Source of the DNA: Thermodesulfobacteriota bacterium
Lineage (GTDB): Bacteria; Desulfobacterota; GWC2-55-46; DRQE01
Length of the DNA stretch: 62,769 bases
Direction: 5' to 3'
NCBI GenBank assembly: GCA_035655515.1
Contig: DASRUI010000129.1
Span: 1-62,769, forward strand
The position numbers were made by a program, and so were the translations under genes. Positions 4,603 to 51,395 of the stretch are shown piece by piece. The notes beneath the pieces are model-generated. The model searched no databases. It was given only the letters and a program-made list of their open reading frames with translations, and was not told where the DNA came from. Within the stretch, counting starts at the first letter, position 1; the number at the start of each line of letters is the position of its first letter.

Positions 4603-5781
4603 TTATTGAGATGGAGCCGGTTCTTTCGGTTTCGCCGGATGTATCAGGGCGCCCTCCGGCACGGATTGTTTGTCGTAGGCGTGGCACCTCATGCAGTCCG
4701 AGAACGTGAACGACACCCTGCCGTGGCATTTGCCGCAGTGCTTGCCGTCGAGCACCTCTTTCATGACGATTTTATTGGCGTTGAGTTCGGATTTGAAGAC
4801 GTTTTCGTGGCAGAGCGAGCATTTGATCCACGTCGAATGTATCTTGTGGCTGAAAAGAACCCCCTTCATGAAGCTCATCGAAGATTCGAAATAAATGAGG
4901 TTATCCTTCACACCTTCAACTTCTTCCTCGGCGTTTATCGAATCGAGCGGTTTGAACGCGCCTGTTTTGTCGAGTTTGACCCAGTTTATGAAGCCGAATT
5001 TGTCGCGCGGGTAGGTCTTTTCGGGAAGTTTTTCCGGGTCCCAGAACGAGCCGAGCCTCGCGGAAATCTCTTTAAGGTCTTTGTCCGTAAAACGGCTTAA
5101 GTCGCGAAACGGCTTCGATTTGTCCGTCCCGGCCATGTGGCATCTTTCGCAGTTTTTGTCGGTCGTCGAGAAGGATATCTTGCCGTTATGGCACGCGCCG
5201 CAAAATTTGCCTTCGTCTATCGTTTTATGCGAGATTCCGTTCGCCCCGCGTTTCATTTTTTCTATGCCTTCGTGGCACACCTTGCATCTGAAAAAGAGCC
5301 TGTGCACCCAATGCGGGTAAAGGACCGGGGCAAGCCCCTGCTTGACCATCTCCTCGTTGTGCGTCATGAGGACGAAGTTTCCGGGCACTTTTTCCTCGCG
5401 CGCGTACTTCTCTTTTTCTTCGACGCGTTTCTTTTCTTCCGCGATTTCTTTTTTCTGGATGTCTTCGACCTTCTTTAAAAGGCCTGCGTCGCCGGCGTTC
5501 CATTCAATATTCATGGCGGCAAGGGCGTTCGCCACGTCCAGGATGTCCATTTTCTCGAAGTAGCTTTTATCCTTCGATGCCGCCTCGTTTATCAGGAATT
5601 CCACCTCGGCCGATATTGCGCTTTTATACTGCCTTACGAGCGCGGCCGCGCGGTCGGATTTCATGGCCTTGTAGCTCGCGGTAAAGTCTTTTATGAAGGC
5701 GCTTTCCTCGGCCTTTGCGCCAAACGGCAGGACGGCCGAAACCAGAAACGCGAAAATAGCGAACAGAGTCTTTTTCTTCAT
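4603..5781 (-). CDS. Periplasmic multihaem cytochrome c (six CxxCH; two c7/c3-like trihaem modules)
   Basis: Signal peptide MKKKTLFAIFAFLVSAVLPFGAKA. Haem motifs are CKVCH, CGACH, CERCH, CSLCH, CGKCH and CMRCH, arranged as two similar modules. Confidence 0.8.
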   Translation of the reverse strand: MKKKTLFAIFAFLVSAVLPFGAKAEESAFIKDFTASYKAMKSDRAAALVRQYKSAISAEVEFLINEAASKDKSYFEKMDILDVANALAAMNIEWNAGDAGLLKKVEDIQKKEIAEEKKRVEEKEKYAREEKVPGNFVLMTHNEEMVKQGLAPVLYPHWVHRLFFRCKVCHEGIEKMKRGANGISHKTIDEGKFCGACHNGKISFSTTDKNCERCHMAGTDKSKPFRDLSRFTDKDLKEISARLGSFWDPEKLPEKTYPRDKFGFINWVKLDKTGAFKPLDSINAEEEVEGVKDNLIYFESSMSFMKGVLFSHKIHSTWIKCSLCHENVFKSELNANKIVMKEVLDGKHCGKCHGRVSFTFSDCMRCHAYDKQSVPEGALIHPAKPKEPAPSQ

Positions 5782-10752: not shown

Positions 10753-11103
10753 TGGTGGAGGCGGTGGGAATCGAACCCACGTCCGGAAACACTTGAGCCG
10801 GGGCATCTACATACTTAGCCTATGATTGAATCTCGCGCCGCGTTTCCCCACAGGCAGGGGCGCGGAGCCAGTCCCATTGAGTCTCGCCTTCGTTCGCTCG
10901 GGACAAAGTAACGAAGGCCATCCCGCAAAGTGTCGTCCTTACAAGGCCCGCGGGAGGGGACATGCAGGACGCTCGCCGTTAATTAAGCGGCGAGTGCGTA
11001 GTTTGGTTCGCCAGTTATGGCTGTCTACCCTGTTTTACGAGGAGATAGGACCTCGGTATGCTTCCCTCGACTTGCCGGCGTCCCGTCGAAGCCGGTCGCC
11101 CCC
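10753..11103 (-). ncRNA. ssrA: tmRNA (SsrA)
   Basis: Minus-strand 5' end is GGGGGCGACCGGCTTCGACGGG and the 3' end is GGGTTCGATTCCCACCGCCTCCACCA (tRNA-Ala-like acceptor/T-arm). The internal tag frame GCC ATA ACT GGC GAA CCA AAC TAC GCA CTC GCC GCT TAA ends in the canonical NYALAA. It lies adjacent to smpB. Confidence 0.9.
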
Positions 11104-27650: not shown

Positions 27651-27867
27651 CATTTATGTGGCTTCGGTGAATTGCGCGCAGTGTTCTCGAAATCTGTTTA
27701 GGATTTTGGCAAGGAAAAACCTTGCAAATCGTAATCTCTCTGTGGCAAGATTTTTATTCCGAACGGAATAAAATTGGGATTGCTTGAGTTGTGATGATGT
27801 CCCATGGATTACGTGTCGCCTGAATTTGCCCCAAAACTATAAAACAGGAAAAACAACTGTCTATATA

Positions 27868-28611
27868 TTAAGATTGAGGTTTTGGAATCTCTGGTGTTTC
27901 TTTTTTACCCCGGAGAGTATCTCCATAATCTCTAAGCTGTTTCATTGCTCCTTCCACGTTGTCTATGTGCTCACTTATTTCTCCTTCCTTAAGCATACGC
28001 GCCTTAAAGTCTGTACCATCCGGTGCCAGTACGGCAATCTGCATAGGCCCGTTGATACCTCCGGGATTTAGTTCTATCGCATGTTGAAGCGCCCATGCCA
28101 CCACGAATATTCCATCTTGATATGTCTCGGGTTGTCCTTTGGGCCAGAAAATTTTTCGCATAAGGCCTAAAAATGGATCGGCGATCAACTGACCACTTCC
28201 GATAGAAACATACCAAAGATGTTCTGTTTTTATCTCGGGTTGAAAATCTCTAACTTGGAATTCGCATAGGTGGCTCTTTTTTTCTGCAGGAAAAGCTACC
28301 AGTGCCCCATATTGCCCTTTATCTACGTTGGTAACGGCAAAGTCTTTAATCCCAATTTCGCACATTGTTCTTGCAACATCAATATGATGTCCTTTAAATT
28401 TTTTTTCATTCCATGCCTTTTCAATCTGATGAGAAAACCTTTGTCCTAATCCCACTTGTCCAGTACCTGCTATAATAATTTTTCCATCAATAATATCAAT
28501 TTTTTTTATTGGCTGTTCGATAGTTCTAAGTCTCTCATCACCAAAAGTGGCAGAACTGTCAGCGCCAACTACCACGCCGTTCTTACATAAGACGCCGATG
28601 AGTATAGTCAT
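27868..28611 (-). CDS. Orphan proteasome-beta/HslV-type N-terminal-nucleophile (Ntn) hydrolase
   Basis: MTILIGVLCKNGVVVGADSSAT...IKKIDIIDGKIIIAGTGQVGLGQRF parallels HslV/20S beta (TTIV.V...G.V..A.D...T......K(K)I..I.D.......AG). Thr directly follows the initiator Met. Asp is at +17 and Lys at about +35 relative to Thr1. There is a later SIGSG motif. No hslU or Anbu-type neighbours. Low GC. Confidence 0.75.
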   Translation of the reverse strand: MTILIGVLCKNGVVVGADSSATFGDERLRTIEQPIKKIDIIDGKIIIAGTGQVGLGQRFSHQIEKAWNEKKFKGHHIDVARTMCEIGIKDFAVTNVDKGQYGALVAFPAEKKSHLCEFQVRDFQPEIKTEHLWYVSIGSGQLIADPFLGLMRKIFWPKGQPETYQDGIFVVAWALQHAIELNPGGINGPMQIAVLAPDGTDFKARMLKEGEISEHIDNVEGAMKQLRDYGDTLRGKKETPEIPKPQS

Positions 28612-28614
28612 AAT

Positions 28615-29049
28615 TCAATCCTTAAACACACTGTTTTGCTTCATTTCTGGATATGCTTTATAAATTGCCGACACTAGTTGAGGGAACGATAGCGAGAGGA
28701 CAAATTTAGAAATCTCGCGGATGAATTCTTGCCCTTTGCTCTCGATGGAATTCAATGCGTTATCGCCAATCTTTTGTCCATTTGGAGTTAGACGATACTT
28801 CTTCCATGTTTGACCGCTCTCGATTATTTCAACCGATCCTTCTTGACAAAGCCCTTCGAGAACCGTATAAACATTTTGGTCGAAAGGACCGTAATCGTAA
28901 GGCTTGAAATTAAAATGAGGGCCTTGCACCATTGTGGAGACGCTTTTATCGATTAAAAAAAGTAATTTCTGAATCTGCACCGGCGTATGGATTCCACCAT
29001 TAGATGCCGCAAATGATGCTAAGACAATTGATTTTTTGTCTATTGTCAT
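28615..29049 (-). CDS. Panacea (DUF4065, SocA/GepA)-like protein with winged-helix-like C-terminal half
   Basis: ATG at 29049 with AAGGAG 7 nt upstream. TPVQIQKLLFLID ... FNFKPYDYGPFDQNVYTVL resembles the LQKLLY...F.AW.YGP....VY signature of DUF4065. EGSVEIIESGQTWKKYRLTPNG looks like a wHTH wing. Its stop lies 3 nt from the start of the Ntn-hydrolase gene. Confidence 0.5.
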   Translation of the reverse strand: MTIDKKSIVLASFAASNGGIHTPVQIQKLLFLIDKSVSTMVQGPHFNFKPYDYGPFDQNVYTVLEGLCQEGSVEIIESGQTWKKYRLTPNGQKIGDNALNSIESKGQEFIREISKFVLSLSFPQLVSAIYKAYPEMKQNSVFKD

Positions 29050-29096
29050 CGAATTTCTCCTTATCACAACGTAATCAAAGATTATTTTATCTTGCC

Positions 29097-29102
29097 ATTA
29101 TA
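29097..29102 (-). promoter_or_regulatory. Possible -10 box (TATAAT) for the Panacea-like/Ntn-hydrolase pair
   Basis: The minus strand reads gttgaatcTATAATggcaag, 48 nt upstream of the 29049 ATG. No good -35. Confidence 0.3.
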
Positions 29103-29146
29103 GATTCAACGACACACCGCGATATGGATCGTGGTGCAGAGGATTG

Positions 29147-29422
29147 TCAGCGTAGACCTAATCTTTTTGCAAGTTTTTCATCTGTTGCGTAAAACTCATC
29201 TTTTTCTAATCCTGATTGACGAATCATGCTGGCCATGAGTTCATTAGAATATTGATCCGTATCGCGCTGTAATTTTTTTACAGTTACAATGCGTCTTTGC
29301 CCTTTGGTATATCCTTCCCATTGTGTATGAGAAGAACCACTTTTTGATTTCGGATTGAAATTTAACCGTCTTAAAATTCGTTCAATATCCGGACGGGTTA
29401 AGAGAGGAAGTGATTTCCCCAT
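29147..29422 (-). CDS. hicA: HicA-family mRNA interferase toxin (with C-terminal extension)
   Basis: RPDIERILRRLNF...KSGSSHTQWEGY...RRIVTV fits the HicA/YcfA pattern (..L...GF.....GSH......G....VP.H). Abuts the hicB-like stop. Confidence 0.65.
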   Translation of the reverse strand: MGKSLPLLTRPDIERILRRLNFNPKSKSGSSHTQWEGYTKGQRRIVTVKKLQRDTDQYSNELMASMIRQSGLEKDEFYATDEKLAKRLGLR

Positions 29423-29755
29423 CTAACAGGCATTTTTGATAAGACAAAATGGGATGGATTCTTCAAAAACAAGGCGTGACCTAATTGCCTTGATTTTATT
29501 GAGAAGCCAAATGCTGTGGTAAAATAGGATGTCTTTAGGGGGACTTTTGCGCTTGAGAAGTTTAGGTATTGTGGTTAAATCTTGGGTATCTAAAACGGCG
29601 CCGAGATAGCCTTTTATGGCATTTTCGAGAGACTTCTTCGCTTTATCGAGGGTATCTTCTTCGTCTACAAGGTCAAGGTCTATACATTTGACAATCCATG
29701 TGCAACGAGAGGTTTGGTATCCGTAACACCGCAGTATCATTTCTTGTGGCCTCAT
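29423..29755 (-). CDS. hicB: HicB-like antitoxin (N-terminal HicB fold only; no recognisable RHH/HTH domain)
   Basis: ILRCYGYQTSRCTWIVKCIDLDLVDEEDTLDKAKKSLENAIKGYL resembles the HicB_N/UPF0150 pattern (Y.....ED....A.CP.L......G.T.EEA..N..EAI..YL). GGAGG lies 6 nt upstream of the ATG. Confidence 0.5.
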   Translation of the reverse strand: MRPQEMILRCYGYQTSRCTWIVKCIDLDLVDEEDTLDKAKKSLENAIKGYLGAVLDTQDLTTIPKLLKRKSPPKDILFYHSIWLLNKIKAIRSRLVFEESIPFCLIKNAC

Positions 29756-29825
29756 GACATCCCTCCTTTTCGCTAAATATCGAGAAACGGTACCATTACC
29801 TATTTCACTGCGATTGTCAAGATAA

Positions 29826-29849
29826 ATTATACACTATCATTATACACTA
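29826..29849 (-). promoter_or_regulatory. Tandem extended -10 promoters upstream of hicB
   Basis: The minus strand reads TAGTGTATAAT-GA-TAGTGTATAAT. That is two perfect TGnTATAAT boxes 13 nt apart, 70-85 nt upstream of the hicB ATG. Confidence 0.45.
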
Positions 29850-29926
29850 CATAGTGCTTTTCTTCAACCCCTAAACTTCTAACGTGGCGATTTTTTAAAA
29901 GAATTCGCTTAAGACTGTTCTGCCCC

Positions 29927-35854: not shown

Positions 35855-36988
35855 ATGCGCTTTCGTTGCGTCAATATTCTCGTTGCATTGTTTTTTATTT
35901 TCAGTTTTTCTTCAATAGCGTATTCAGGCGAGATGGATGACGGAGTCGCGGCCTATAAAAAGGGCGACTTTGCCGCGGCAATTAAAAAATTCCGCCAATT
36001 GGCCGAGCAGGGGGATGCCGATGCGCAGTTTAATCTCGGGTTTATGTATTACAGAGGCGAAGGTGCGCCTCGGGATTTTAAGGAAGCGGCTAAATGGTTT
36101 CAAAAATCCGCCGAGCAGGGATTTACAGGGGCGCAAAATAAGATTGGTTTAATGTATGAAAAAGGCAAAGGTGTACCACAGGACTATAGAGTAATGCCAA
36201 CACCAATAAATCCAGATGAAGTTGTGTGGGACGATGATGAAGCGGAGTTGGCAGAATTAAATAAGACTGATGTGGAAGTTGACGCAGATAAAAAGGAAGC
36301 GGTTAAATGGTTTCTCGAGTCCGCTGATCAAGGGAGCGCCAATGTACGGTATGTTCTCGGGTTAATGTATTATGAAGGATACCAAAATGTGCCACAGGAC
36401 TATAAAGAAGCGGCTAATTGGTATCGCAAGGCCGCTGAGCAAGGGAAAGCAGAGGCGCAGTATAATCTCGGGTTAATGTATTACAAAGGCGAAGGCGTGG
36501 CTCAGGACTATAAGGAAGCGGTTAGATGGTGGCGCAAGGCCGCTGAGCAGGGACATGCCGGTGCGCAGAATAATCTCGGGAATTCGTATCACGAAGGCGA
36601 AGGCGTGCCTCAGGATTATAAGGAAGCGGTTAAGTGGTATCGCAAGGCCGCCGAGCAGGGAGATGCCGGTGCGCAGGGTATACTCGGGTACATGTATCTC
36701 GAAGGCAAAGGTGTGCCTCAGGATTTCAAGGAAGCGGTTAAATGGTCTCGCAAGGCCGCTGAGCAGGGGAATGCCGATGCGCAGTTTAGTCTCGGGTCAA
36801 TGTATTTCGAAGGCAAAGGCGTGCCTCAGGATGATGTTTTGGCTTATATGTGGTTTAATATTTCCGCGTATAATGGGAATTCATCGGAGACAAAGGCCAG
36901 AGATGCTATGATGAAAGTAATGACTCCGAGCCAGATAGAAGAAGCGCAGACCCTCACAAGAGAATGGCTGGAGAAAAAGGGGAAATAA
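35855..36988 (+). CDS. Sel1-like repeat (SLR/TPR-like) secreted protein
   Basis: Signal peptide, then about nine 36-aa units (A.KWYRKAAEQG.A.AQ.NLG.MY..G.GV.QDYKEA). The repeats are visible at DNA level with a 108-bp period. Confidence 0.9.
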   Translation: MRFRCVNILVALFFIFSFSSIAYSGEMDDGVAAYKKGDFAAAIKKFRQLAEQGDADAQFNLGFMYYRGEGAPRDFKEAAKWFQKSAEQGFTGAQNKIGLMYEKGKGVPQDYRVMPTPINPDEVVWDDDEAELAELNKTDVEVDADKKEAVKWFLESADQGSANVRYVLGLMYYEGYQNVPQDYKEAANWYRKAAEQGKAEAQYNLGLMYYKGEGVAQDYKEAVRWWRKAAEQGHAGAQNNLGNSYHEGEGVPQDYKEAVKWYRKAAEQGDAGAQGILGYMYLEGKGVPQDFKEAVKWSRKAAEQGNADAQFSLGSMYFEGKGVPQDDVLAYMWFNISAYNGNSSETKARDAMMKVMTPSQIEEAQTLTREWLEKKGK

Positions 36989-37084: not shown

Positions 37085-37402
37085 ATGGGCGAGAAGGAGT
37101 TCATAAAGACCATAAGCGTGGACGGCAATGACAGGTTAAGGGTCAGGATTATCACGCAGAAAGGCGTTGTTGCCGATGTCGTTGTCCAGTATGAAGCAAA
37201 GATAAAAGACAGATGGCATCCCGTGGTGAGGTATGATTGTTCTCATGGCTTTTTTCACAGGGATATGTTGAACTTTAAAGGAGAGGACGAGAAAAAGGTC
37301 ATTCCCATCAATAATCTGAAAGACGCGTTGACATACGCGGAACAGGACATTTCGGACAGGTGGGAGTGGTATAAGGAAAGGTTCAAAAGGAGGATGAAAT
37401 GA
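37085..37402 (+). CDS. Hypothetical small protein (first gene of an overlapping two-gene cassette)
   Basis: 105 aa. The core WHPVVRYDCSHGFFHRDM...VIPINNLKDAL is reminiscent by eye of TumE/DUF6516-type toxins (unverified). Its stop overlaps the next start (ATGA). Confidence 0.45.
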   Translation: MGEKEFIKTISVDGNDRLRVRIITQKGVVADVVVQYEAKIKDRWHPVVRYDCSHGFFHRDMLNFKGEDEKKVIPINNLKDALTYAEQDISDRWEWYKERFKRRMK

Positions 37403-37614
37403 CAAAGAAAGAGATTGCCGCGAGAAACATCGGCATGACGTTCGATTTTATAAGAAACATTGTGGACAACCCCGCTGCCGTTGCGTCAGTTCCGGACGGC
37501 GCAGAGGTTGATTTTATAGGCTCCGACTTTCCTTTAGGCCCGGAGATAGGGACAAAAGGCAAGACTGTGGCAAGGTATAAGGTCAGCCATGTGTTCGAGC
37601 AAGTAAAGCGGTAG
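37399..37614 (+). CDS. Hypothetical small protein (second gene of the cassette)
   Basis: 71-aa ORF translationally coupled to the previous gene. No family recognised. Confidence 0.4.
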   Translation: MTKKEIAARNIGMTFDFIRNIVDNPAAVASVPDGAEVDFIGSDFPLGPEIGTKGKTVARYKVSHVFEQVKR

Positions 37615-51170: not shown

Positions 51171-51395
51171 GAAATTCTTGACAAGGGGATAGTCTTATAG
51201 TAAAAAAGGGTGAAAAATCCCTTTGCAACTGACGGAATAAAGGTGGTTACCACCGGGAAGCACAGGGCGGGTACCCATGCGAAGCATGGGTCGGGATAAT
51301 TGTCGACCGTCTGGGCAAATAAAGCGCATCCTTTTTTTAAAAGAAAAGGATAGCTTGTGCTTGGGCGGTTTTTTGTTTTAGAAGCGCGACAATCC

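Follow-up and report, generated by a model that had tools for sequence, protein, structure and literature searches.

A proteasome-type threonine protease gene and its small partner gene in a compact mobile cassette, possibly a toxin-antitoxin or abortive-infection module

The gene pair and its products

The 62,769-nucleotide contig DASRUI010000129.1 of a Thermodesulfobacteriota bacterium (assembly GCA_035655515.1), referred to here as the window, carries on its minus strand two adjacent genes, the first encoding a small protein of 144 amino acids (aa) and the second a 247-aa protease related to proteasome subunits. The pair had been picked out in an earlier reading by a model that ran no database searches (the sequence-only reading), which placed the end of the small gene 3 nt before the protease start and described the protease as a catalytically intact N-terminal nucleophile (Ntn) threonine protease of proteasome/HslV type lacking a propeptide. 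The gene arrangement was confirmed from the open reading frames (ORFs) and the sequence, and the description of the protease by Pfam, alignment, an AlphaFold2 model and Foldseek. Coordinates are collected in Table 1. Between the TGA of the small gene and the ATG of the protease gene lie 3 nt. An AAGGA within the 3' end of the small gene could be the ribosome-binding site of the protease and, together with the short spacer, suggests that the two genes are translationally coupled. The small-gene ORF as listed spans 28615..29067 (minus strand), and translation from a GTG at 29067 would yield a 150-aa protein; the ATG at 29049, yielding 144 aa, is the most likely start because AAGGAG sits 7 nt upstream of it.

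The protease N-terminus starts MTILIGVLCKNGVVVGADSSAT. The protein scored 35.2 bits against the Pfam Proteasome family PF00227 (gathering cutoff 22.4, E = 1.3e-8), a match carried by most of its homologues. At least 485 homologues were found at E ≤ 0.001, with lengths of approximately 210-280 aa among the 120 matches listed, and at least 463 were found for the small protein, so the two do not represent a chance pair of ORFs. The active-site residues lie where the sequence-only reading had put them: Thr2 directly after the initiator Met, Asp18 (Asp17 of the mature protein), Lys37 at +35 from the threonine and a later GSG motif at G138-S139-G140. In an alignment of 27 protease sequences T2, D18, K37, G49-T50-G51, S139 and D145 are invariant. 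Across 76 genome loci, with identities down to about 32%, Thr2 and Asp18 are each present in all 74 N-terminally complete copies, Lys37 and the oxyanion residue Gly51 in 76 of 76, and Ser139 in 71 of 76; these are the counterparts of Thr1, Asp17, Lys33, the oxyanion Gly and Ser129 of proteasome-like Ntn hydrolases. Further invariant residues lie outside the catalytic set, for example Q57, P125-E126, Q141, D145-P146-F147 and W173.

The AlphaFold2 model of the protease (predicted local distance difference test score, pLDDT, 87.5; predicted template-modelling score, pTM, 0.85) shows a beta sandwich with helices H1-H4 and no large insertions. The charged C-terminal tail of about 40 aa noted previously is modelled as a long helix (residues 209-233) followed by a Pro-rich tail. 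Most homologues end in a Pro-rich motif resembling P-[DE]-[IV]-P-[KR]-P at the position of residues 235-247 or thereabouts, and this conserved motif may be a docking peptide. Foldseek comparison of the model with the PDB returned 20S beta and alpha subunits at E values of about 1e-11 and template-modelling (TM) scores of up to 0.80. The predicted fold is the alpha-beta-beta-alpha sandwich characteristic of 20S subunits. By profile, the nearest solved structures were archaeal and eukaryotic beta subunits first (archaeal beta, E = 1.4e-4), and NCBIfam gave weak matches to archaeal beta and alpha subunits only.

Assignment to one of the established bacterial families was considered and rejected. 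No HslV model in NCBIfam matches the protease and no AAA+ gene is conserved across 80 related loci; Anbu was discounted because only two genes are conserved across those loci, and BPH (PDB 5ovu/5ovs) on a phmmer E value of 0.68. HslV, Anbu and BPH were all absent from profile matches against the PDB at E ≤ 0.01, and ATP-grasp, alpha-E and transglutaminase-like families were absent among the 25 most frequent neighbour families listed. No unfoldase, HslU, alpha subunit or Anbu-type partner is linked to the pair at the window locus or at any of the 80 related loci, which extends to the wider family an absence already remarked on for the window. The protease matched no model in PADLOC-DB v2.0.0. 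As judged from sequence and model, it is a distinct proteasome homologue with intact catalytic residues and no propeptide.

The small protein was less readily placed. The motifs quoted in the sequence-only reading (IQKLLFL, FNFKPYDYGPFD..VY and VEIIE..KKYRLTPNG) are present and are the best conserved parts of the family. The Panacea (DUF4065) label attached to them holds in part: when 41 relatives were scanned singly, 12 matched SocA_Panacea at E ≤ 0.01 (best 6.3e-5) and nine matched PadR, whereas the window protein itself reached only 14.6 bits against a cutoff of 25.7 for PF13274 (E = 0.066). Thus, of the two Pfam families expected for the pair, PF00227 was recovered above threshold and PF13274 below it. 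A precomputed PF13274 match is carried by a minority of the database homologues, and the remaining sub-threshold Pfam matches of the window protein were to the winged-helix families PadR, TrmB and RTP.

Closer relatives of the small protein were found elsewhere. Among PADLOC models it matched PDC-M19A at E = 4e-11 (model positions 3-125 of 294), DarG at E = 3e-6 (positions 160-273 of 329) and, in their C-terminal parts, two type I HsdS models (E = 9e-6 for one of them); NCBIfam yielded weak matches to DarG, with 17.3 bits against a cutoff of 250, and to SocA antitoxin. Its AlphaFold2 model has a pLDDT of 93.7, and the best PDB match by Foldseek was chain B of 7yk3, the C-terminal domain of DarG in the DarTG complex (E = 6e-5, TM 0.58), followed at E ≥ 5e-3 by winged-helix regulators of the MarR and PadR types. 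Against viral models the best matches were uncharacterised Sulfolobus virus proteins (TM 0.6-0.7), and an annotated SocA-like Panacea phage protein ranked 26th (E = 0.11). Identification as the DarG antitoxin itself was rejected, since the C-terminal-domain region alone matches and the score falls far below the cutoff.

In the small-protein family a Y-G-P-F motif (G54, P55, F56) is invariant, Phe replacing the Val of the GPV motif that is a conserved Panacea signature (PMC8832971). The median pI of the family is 6.3 and the putative DNA-recognition helix is net acidic, which argues for protein binding rather than DNA binding. From its sequence and predicted structure, the small protein is considered a protein-binding winged-helix domain of the DarG C-terminal domain (CTD), PDC-M19A and Panacea class, and a distant relative rather than a demonstrated member of DUF4065. 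The C-terminal tail YPEM..NSVF is invariant and usually lies two residues from the end of the protein. A role for this tail as an HbYX-style docking or pseudo-substrate peptide was considered and dropped, because the motif is internal in a sister clade lacking the protease and the region is covered by an HsdS C-terminal model.

That sister clade emerged from a profile search of 1.84 billion representative sequences, which at E cutoffs of 1e-30, 1e-10 and 1e-3 returned 293, 1,160 and 2,690 proteins, respectively. Its members, of about 215 aa, contain the whole domain, including the IY..YP.M..NSV motif, plus a C-terminal extension of 70-90 aa. Their genes do not adjoin a proteasome homologue; one lies within a type III restriction-modification (RM) operon and others adjoin unrelated small genes. 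In the RM operon (locus L092) the gene for a 215-aa protein lies between a 1,037-aa ResIII-like gene, whose end it overlaps, and the type III methyltransferase gene that follows, an arrangement in which the domain is also an insert in RM operons. The core small-protein family was paired solely with the protease in the loci examined. Given the positions of the sister clade in an RM operon and beside unrelated genes, the domain is, as far as sequence can tell, a reusable module of defence and toxin-antitoxin (TA) loci, as described for Panacea.

Linkage, mobility and genomic surroundings

When 185,579 species were scanned, each represented by one genome, 94 protease relatives came to light, and 80 loci from more than 15 phyla were kept. 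A small-protein homologue is adjacent to the protease in 78 of the 80 (tblastn), and both genes were present in all seven further loci examined; the absence of such co-occurrence had been named beforehand as grounds for abandoning the pairing. The small gene lies immediately upstream on the same strand in 75 loci, with a distance of -1 to 25 nt between the end of its match and the protease start, except in one partial copy. In three alphaproteobacterial loci (L045, L047 and L056) the pair is convergent, with the small gene downstream on the opposite strand and the 3' ends overlapping by about 4 nt. The two exceptions were a locus at a contig end (L034) and a decayed remnant (L043). At L043, the sole locus without the small gene apart from the contig end, the protease lacks its first 28 or so residues, including Thr1 and Asp17, and a 183-aa ORF occupies the partner's place on the opposite strand. 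A further apparent case of a protease without its partner, L097, was discounted because an insertion sequence (IS) element, IS1595, had inserted between the two genes.

All-against-all clustering of 979 flank ORFs showed that the small-gene and protease families alone are conserved, the next cluster occurring in five loci. Pairwise distances within the one family are correlated with those within the other (r = 0.75, Mantel p = 0.001), and the mean distances are 0.58 and 0.59, indicating equal divergence. The two genes are thus near-obligate neighbours that evolve jointly. Asymmetric decay, in which a toxin is lost and its antitoxin kept, was suspected from three loci with a frameshifted or truncated protease gene and an intact small gene. 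This was dropped since indel errors in metagenome-assembled genomes (MAGs) are possible, one of the MAGs is labelled LR and a few small genes are damaged too.

The cassette measures approximately 1.2-1.4 kb, with no third gene conserved, and occurs in about 0.05% of species genomes (94 protease matches in 185,579 species) in a phylum-hopping pattern. Hosts include Proteobacteria, Acidobacteriota, Chloroflexota, Verrucomicrobiota, Planctomycetota, Nitrospirota, Nitrospinota, Latescibacterota, Patescibacteria of the candidate phyla radiation (CPR), Bacillota, Bacteroidota, Actinomycetota and a single methanogenic archaeon, Methanolinea. One Latescibacteria chromosome carries two copies, 98% identical, of a 1,448-bp segment holding just the two genes. 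A 2,385-bp unit comprising the small gene, the protease gene and an IS1595 transposase gene is present on two contigs of one Acidobacteriota MAG at 99.9% identity, and a unit of the same type in another Acidobacteriota MAG at 94.5% identity. The pair therefore moves as a unit and represents a compact mobile cassette.

Insertion sites vary. The pair was found between panB and panC, elsewhere between tsaD and plsY, and in Paraburkholderia sediminicola between integrases and a resolvase. One copy adjoins a ParE gene with a helix-turn-helix (HTH) gene and an HNH gene, pairs of DUF4258 and HTH genes stand beside the cassette elsewhere, and on an IMG/VR contig the cassette adjoins genes for a DNA methyltransferase and a CI-like repressor. 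Recurrent among 112 nearest-neighbour ORFs were IS1595 and DDE transposases, integrases, type I, II and III methylases, ResIII, HsdS, DpnII restriction endonuclease, HTH_3 proteins and housekeeping genes. The question raised by the sequence-only reading, whether the pair recurs inside defence or TA islands, can be answered to the extent that the cassette is mobile and often lies beside RM, IS, integrase or TA genes.

In three IS1595-borne copies the small gene is preceded, at a distance of about 20 nt, by a perfect AT-rich palindrome of 13-15 bp. For small genes generally the mean best palindrome arm upstream was 6.0 nt compared with 5.4 nt in shuffled sequences, and conserved operator palindromes were rejected as a family feature on account of this marginal excess.

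In the window the cassette lies in an island of four genes with a G+C content of 0.41 (28-29 kb) and 0.38 (29-30 kb) against approximately 0.54 in the flanks, as the sequence-only reading had indicated. The island is bordered by atpI-like, atpB and atpE genes on one side and purA on the other, and loci identical to it are present in several metagenome contigs of the Joint Genome Institute (JGI). Its other two genes had been read as hicBA. The hicA-like gene was recovered with a sub-threshold match to Pfam HicA_toxin (21 bits against a cutoff of 27), whereas the 110-aa gene upstream of it, the supposed hicB, has no family match. A promoter-like sequence upstream of the small gene is a weak candidate, recognised by consensus only, and the number of such sites in the region was not above the expectation from shuffled sequence; if real, it would give the pair its own promoter, apart from that of the hicA-like pair.

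Several features of the window lie apart from the cassette. A second stretch of lower G+C at 36-38 kb holds a gene for a Sel1-repeat protein and also a 105-aa DUF7718 gene and a 71-aa gene, which overlap by 4 nt and may be another small two-gene module. A transfer-messenger RNA (tmRNA) gene lies in a local low-GC kilobase, and a ZMP/ZTP riboswitch scored 50 bits against a gathering score of 39.

Table 1. Positions of the gene pair, its signals, neighbouring features of the window and selected related loci (locus numbers prefixed L)
Feature	Position	Strand	Remarks
Protease gene, proteasome-like, N-terminal threonine	27868..28611	(-)	247-aa ORF; long C-terminal helix, Pro-rich tail
Region of Pro-rich C-terminal motif, protease residues ~235-247	27868-27906	(-)	
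Spacer of 3 nt, small-gene stop to protease ATG	28612..28614	(-)	From sequence
Small partner gene	28615..29049	(-)	144 aa, winged-helix (predicted); related to DarG C-terminal domain, PDC-M19A N-domain and Panacea
Shine-Dalgarno-like AAGGAG of small gene	29057..29062	(-)	Read directly from sequence
Promoter-like TTGAAT-17-AATAAT upstream of small gene	29081..29109	(-)	Weak, consensus-only candidate
Low-GC island	27700..29900		Four genes (hicB-like, hicA-like, small, protease); from G+C and gene content
hicA-like gene	29147..29422	(-)	91 aa, GSSH motif; sub-threshold HicA_toxin match
hicA-like pair	29147-29755	(-)	
Candidate promoter TTGAAG-17-TATAAT	29867..29839		Probably own promoter of hicA-like pair
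Sel1-repeat protein gene	35855-36988	(+)	
DUF7718 gene and 71-aa gene	37085-37614	(+)	
tmRNA gene	10753-11103	(-)	Tag peptide GEPNYALAA
ZMP/ZTP riboswitch	51215-51323	(+)	
Gene pair + IS1595 unit copies	L067:5451-7835, L068:5451-7835, L074:5450-7824		
IS1595 inserted exactly between the two genes	L097:5483-6403		Groundwater contig
Decayed remnant without small gene	L043:5380-6726		
Convergent pair (example)	L047:5986-7250		
Type III RM operon with sister-clade gene	L092:1891-9089		Sister-clade gene at 5001-5648

Interpretation of the cassette

The reading preferred here, at somewhat less than an even chance, is that the pair constitutes a TA or abortive-infection cassette in which the threonine protease would act as effector and would be bound and neutralised by the small protein. 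Rather more tentatively, a proteasome-family protease is proposed as the toxic or abortive effector of a mobile cassette, restrained by a DarG-CTD/Panacea-like partner. The reading draws on the compact bicistron, the near-obligate pairing, the joint evolution, the patchy phyletic pattern, the IS-borne and duplicated copies, the TA and RM neighbours and the fact that the relatives of the partner are toxin-neutralising or defence-associated domains. The layout of a type II TA system, with two small, adjacent and co-oriented genes, minimal spacing, mobility and a patchy distribution, is found in the pair, and TA-like pairs lie next door, namely the hicA-like gene in the window and the ParE+HTH and DUF4258+HTH pairs elsewhere. 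It may be added as an anecdote that the one locus without the small gene (L043) holds a protease that is also without its catalytic N-terminus. The two proteins do not match any one system in PADLOC-DB v2.0.0, where the small protein corresponds to a domain shared by PDC-M19A, DarG and HsdS.

Methionine aminopeptidase removes the initiator Met where Thr occupies position 2. The protease would be made with Met-Thr at its N-terminus, and removal of the Met by this enzyme would expose the Thr1 nucleophile, so that no autoprocessing would be needed. The effector would then be an active proteasome-family threonine protease, which the co-translated 144-aa protein is proposed to bind and hold in check, through obstruction of the active site or by preventing the formation of an active oligomer. 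Were the small protein lost or titrated, for example through the shut-off of host expression or the binding of a phage product, proteolysis would be released and would hit essential proteins of the host or the invader.

A number of observations weigh against this proposal. Classical antitoxins usually evolve faster than their toxins, whereas the two families here are equally conserved (0.58 and 0.59), and the AlphaFold2 model of the partner is globular throughout, lacking any disordered, labile tail. Where there is no unfoldase, chambers of the proteasome type normally degrade unfolded substrates only; with none linked to the pair, toxicity of the protease is not obvious. The convergent orientation in three loci removes co-transcription there. 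In many cases the insertion site is among housekeeping genes and not in a recognisable defence island, no homologue was found by tblastn in the GenBank plasmid and phage collections, and viral contigs seldom carry the cassette (2 of 2.9 million in IMG/VR). In addition, the neighbour census was small, listing the 25 most frequent families, and carries no enrichment figure.

The main rival, to which a modest probability may be assigned, holds that the small protein is a substrate-recognition or assembly subunit delivering a particular target (a phage, plasmid or stress-damaged protein, for instance) to a dedicated protease; the role of the pair would then be protection or regulation, not toxicity. 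One-to-one obligate pairing, joint evolution and equal conservation are typical of enzyme-subunit pairs, and a globular, highly conserved partner whose cassette tolerates insertion in housekeeping contexts would fit. There is also the precedent of SocA, a Panacea protein that hands SocB to ClpXP (PMC8832971), although neutralisation by other PanA proteins was found to proceed through direct binding and to depend on neither ClpXP nor Lon (Kurata et al., PMC8832971). An unfoldase is nevertheless linked in none of the 80 loci, the nearest fold to the small protein is a toxin-blocking domain, and a patchy, IS-borne and duplicated distribution is less what one would expect of a physiological protease than of a selfish or defence cassette.

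Improbable in comparison is a repressor and anti-repressor switch of the ImmR/ImmA or CapH/CapP type, in which the protease would cleave a winged-helix repressor on receipt of a signal and thereby activate either the mobile element or a neighbouring defence system. The gene order, with the HTH-like protein first and the protease second, is as this would require, and the winged-helix matches to PadR, MarR and TrmB, the location on mobile elements and the palindrome just upstream of the pair in the three IS1595-borne copies are all consistent with it. The mobile unit can, however, consist of the two genes alone (1,448 bp) and its flanks are not conserved, leaving nothing constant for a switch to regulate; of the downstream genes listed as nearest neighbours, about half are encoded on the other strand. 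The acidic character of the putative recognition helix and the lack of a general excess of upstream palindromes likewise speak against a repressor.

Slightly less probable again is an ordinary regulated housekeeping or stress protease, with a PadR-like transcription factor controlling a proteasome homologue engaged in general quality control. The weak PadR, TrmB and RTP winged-helix matches and the occurrence of some loci among core metabolic genes could be read in this way, and orphan proteasome homologues may act without partners (Fuchs et al. 2021, PMC8665760). Such a protease would hardly be expected in so few species genomes with a phylum-hopping distribution, in duplicated and IS-borne copies, or in a low-GC island as in the window; strict pairing is kept even in the convergent orientation, and the best matches of the partner are antitoxin and defence-associated domains, not regulators. 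A connectase-like, sequence-specific transpeptidase or ligase that processes or conjugates a defined substrate, possibly the small protein, is very improbable and purely speculative: a proteasome homologue acting as a monomeric specific ligase has a precedent in connectase (PMC8665760) and both the invariant protease residues outside the catalytic set and the invariant C-terminal motif of the small protein might be so explained, but that motif is also kept in the protease-less sister clade and so is not protease-specific, and the protease model is without connectase-type insertions over the active site.

Should the TA or abortive-infection reading be correct, the protease would be the first toxin or defence effector of the proteasome type and would provide the first functional context for one clade of orphan prokaryotic proteasome homologues. 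An Ntn threonine protease without a propeptide would be a new effector chemistry for TA and phage defence, and the partner range of the Panacea/DarG-CTD-like neutraliser fold would be widened. A near-obligate, jointly evolving partner gene amounts to a directly testable hypothesis for one widespread proteasome-homologue clade, and with so small a cassette, toxicity and rescue assays, phage challenge and structural work are straightforward.

Comparison with known systems

The protease belongs to the same fold superfamily as HslV, Anbu and BPH, and HslV likewise starts with Met-Thr. The cassette loci differ from those of HslV and Anbu in being without HslU or Anbu-type ATP-grasp and transglutaminase genes. 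A nearer comparison is offered by the proteasome homologues of Fuchs, Alva and Lupas (2021; PMC8665760), who described 22 new groups with no function-suggestive genomic context and no AAA+ partner. In common with their WPH and PHD groups, the protease has a proteasome-beta-like core with the Thr1/Asp17/Lys33 triad, no propeptide, no AAA+ partner and a wide bacterial and archaeal distribution. Its long C-terminal helix is as described for Anbu, WPH, ACC and some PHI (PMC8665760) and, together with the lack of large insertions, speaks against membership of the PMI groups while fitting WPH or PHD. The clade of the window protease may be one of the 22 groups, WPH or PHD being the most compatible with the model, and differs from the homologues as described in having a near-obligate partner gene. 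Accessions were obtained for two of ten protease homologues, and these coincide with none of the reference accessions given by Fuchs et al.

For the small protein, similarity to defence components is confined to a single domain. A domain of about 130 aa is common to the small protein, PDC-M19 and type I HsdS, which places it in defence loci. PDC-M19A is longer, at 294 aa, with a further C-terminal part, and the protease has no counterpart among PADLOC models. Structurally, the small protein is matched best (E = 6e-5) by the C-terminal domain of DarG, which in DarTG (PDB 7yk3) neutralises the partner enzyme by binding it directly (PMC8832971), and both the PADLOC and the NCBIfam DarG models match this same region. 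The differences are that the small protein is without the macrodomain of DarG and that its partner is a protease, not a DNA ADP-ribosyltransferase.

The closest parallel in organisation is with the PanA-PanT systems (Kurata et al. 2022, PMC8832971; Ernits et al. 2023, PMC10440598), in which the Panacea domain pairs with many unrelated partner genes (PMC8832971). No description of the present pairing was found in the searchable literature or in PADLOC v2, the literature on proteasome homologues in connection with Panacea, DUF4065, antitoxins, anti-phage activity or PDC-M19 yielded nothing relevant, and a proteasome-like partner is not mentioned in the text or accessible supplements of PMC8832971 and PMC10440598. 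The small protein falls below the PF13274 threshold and matches the phage Panacea protein weakly in structure, and toxicity of the protease is here a proposal. Shared with PanA-PanT are a small globular protein of winged-helix type with Q-K-L-L-F and Y-x-Y-G-P-(V/F) motifs, whose gene adjoins that of an unrelated enzyme and usually precedes it, a compact two-gene unit of patchy and mobile distribution and the occurrence of the same domain with varied partners. Taken together, these comparisons suggest that the pair, for which no earlier description was found, is a two-gene module of the Panacea/DarG-CTD type whose partner enzyme is a protease of the proteasome type.

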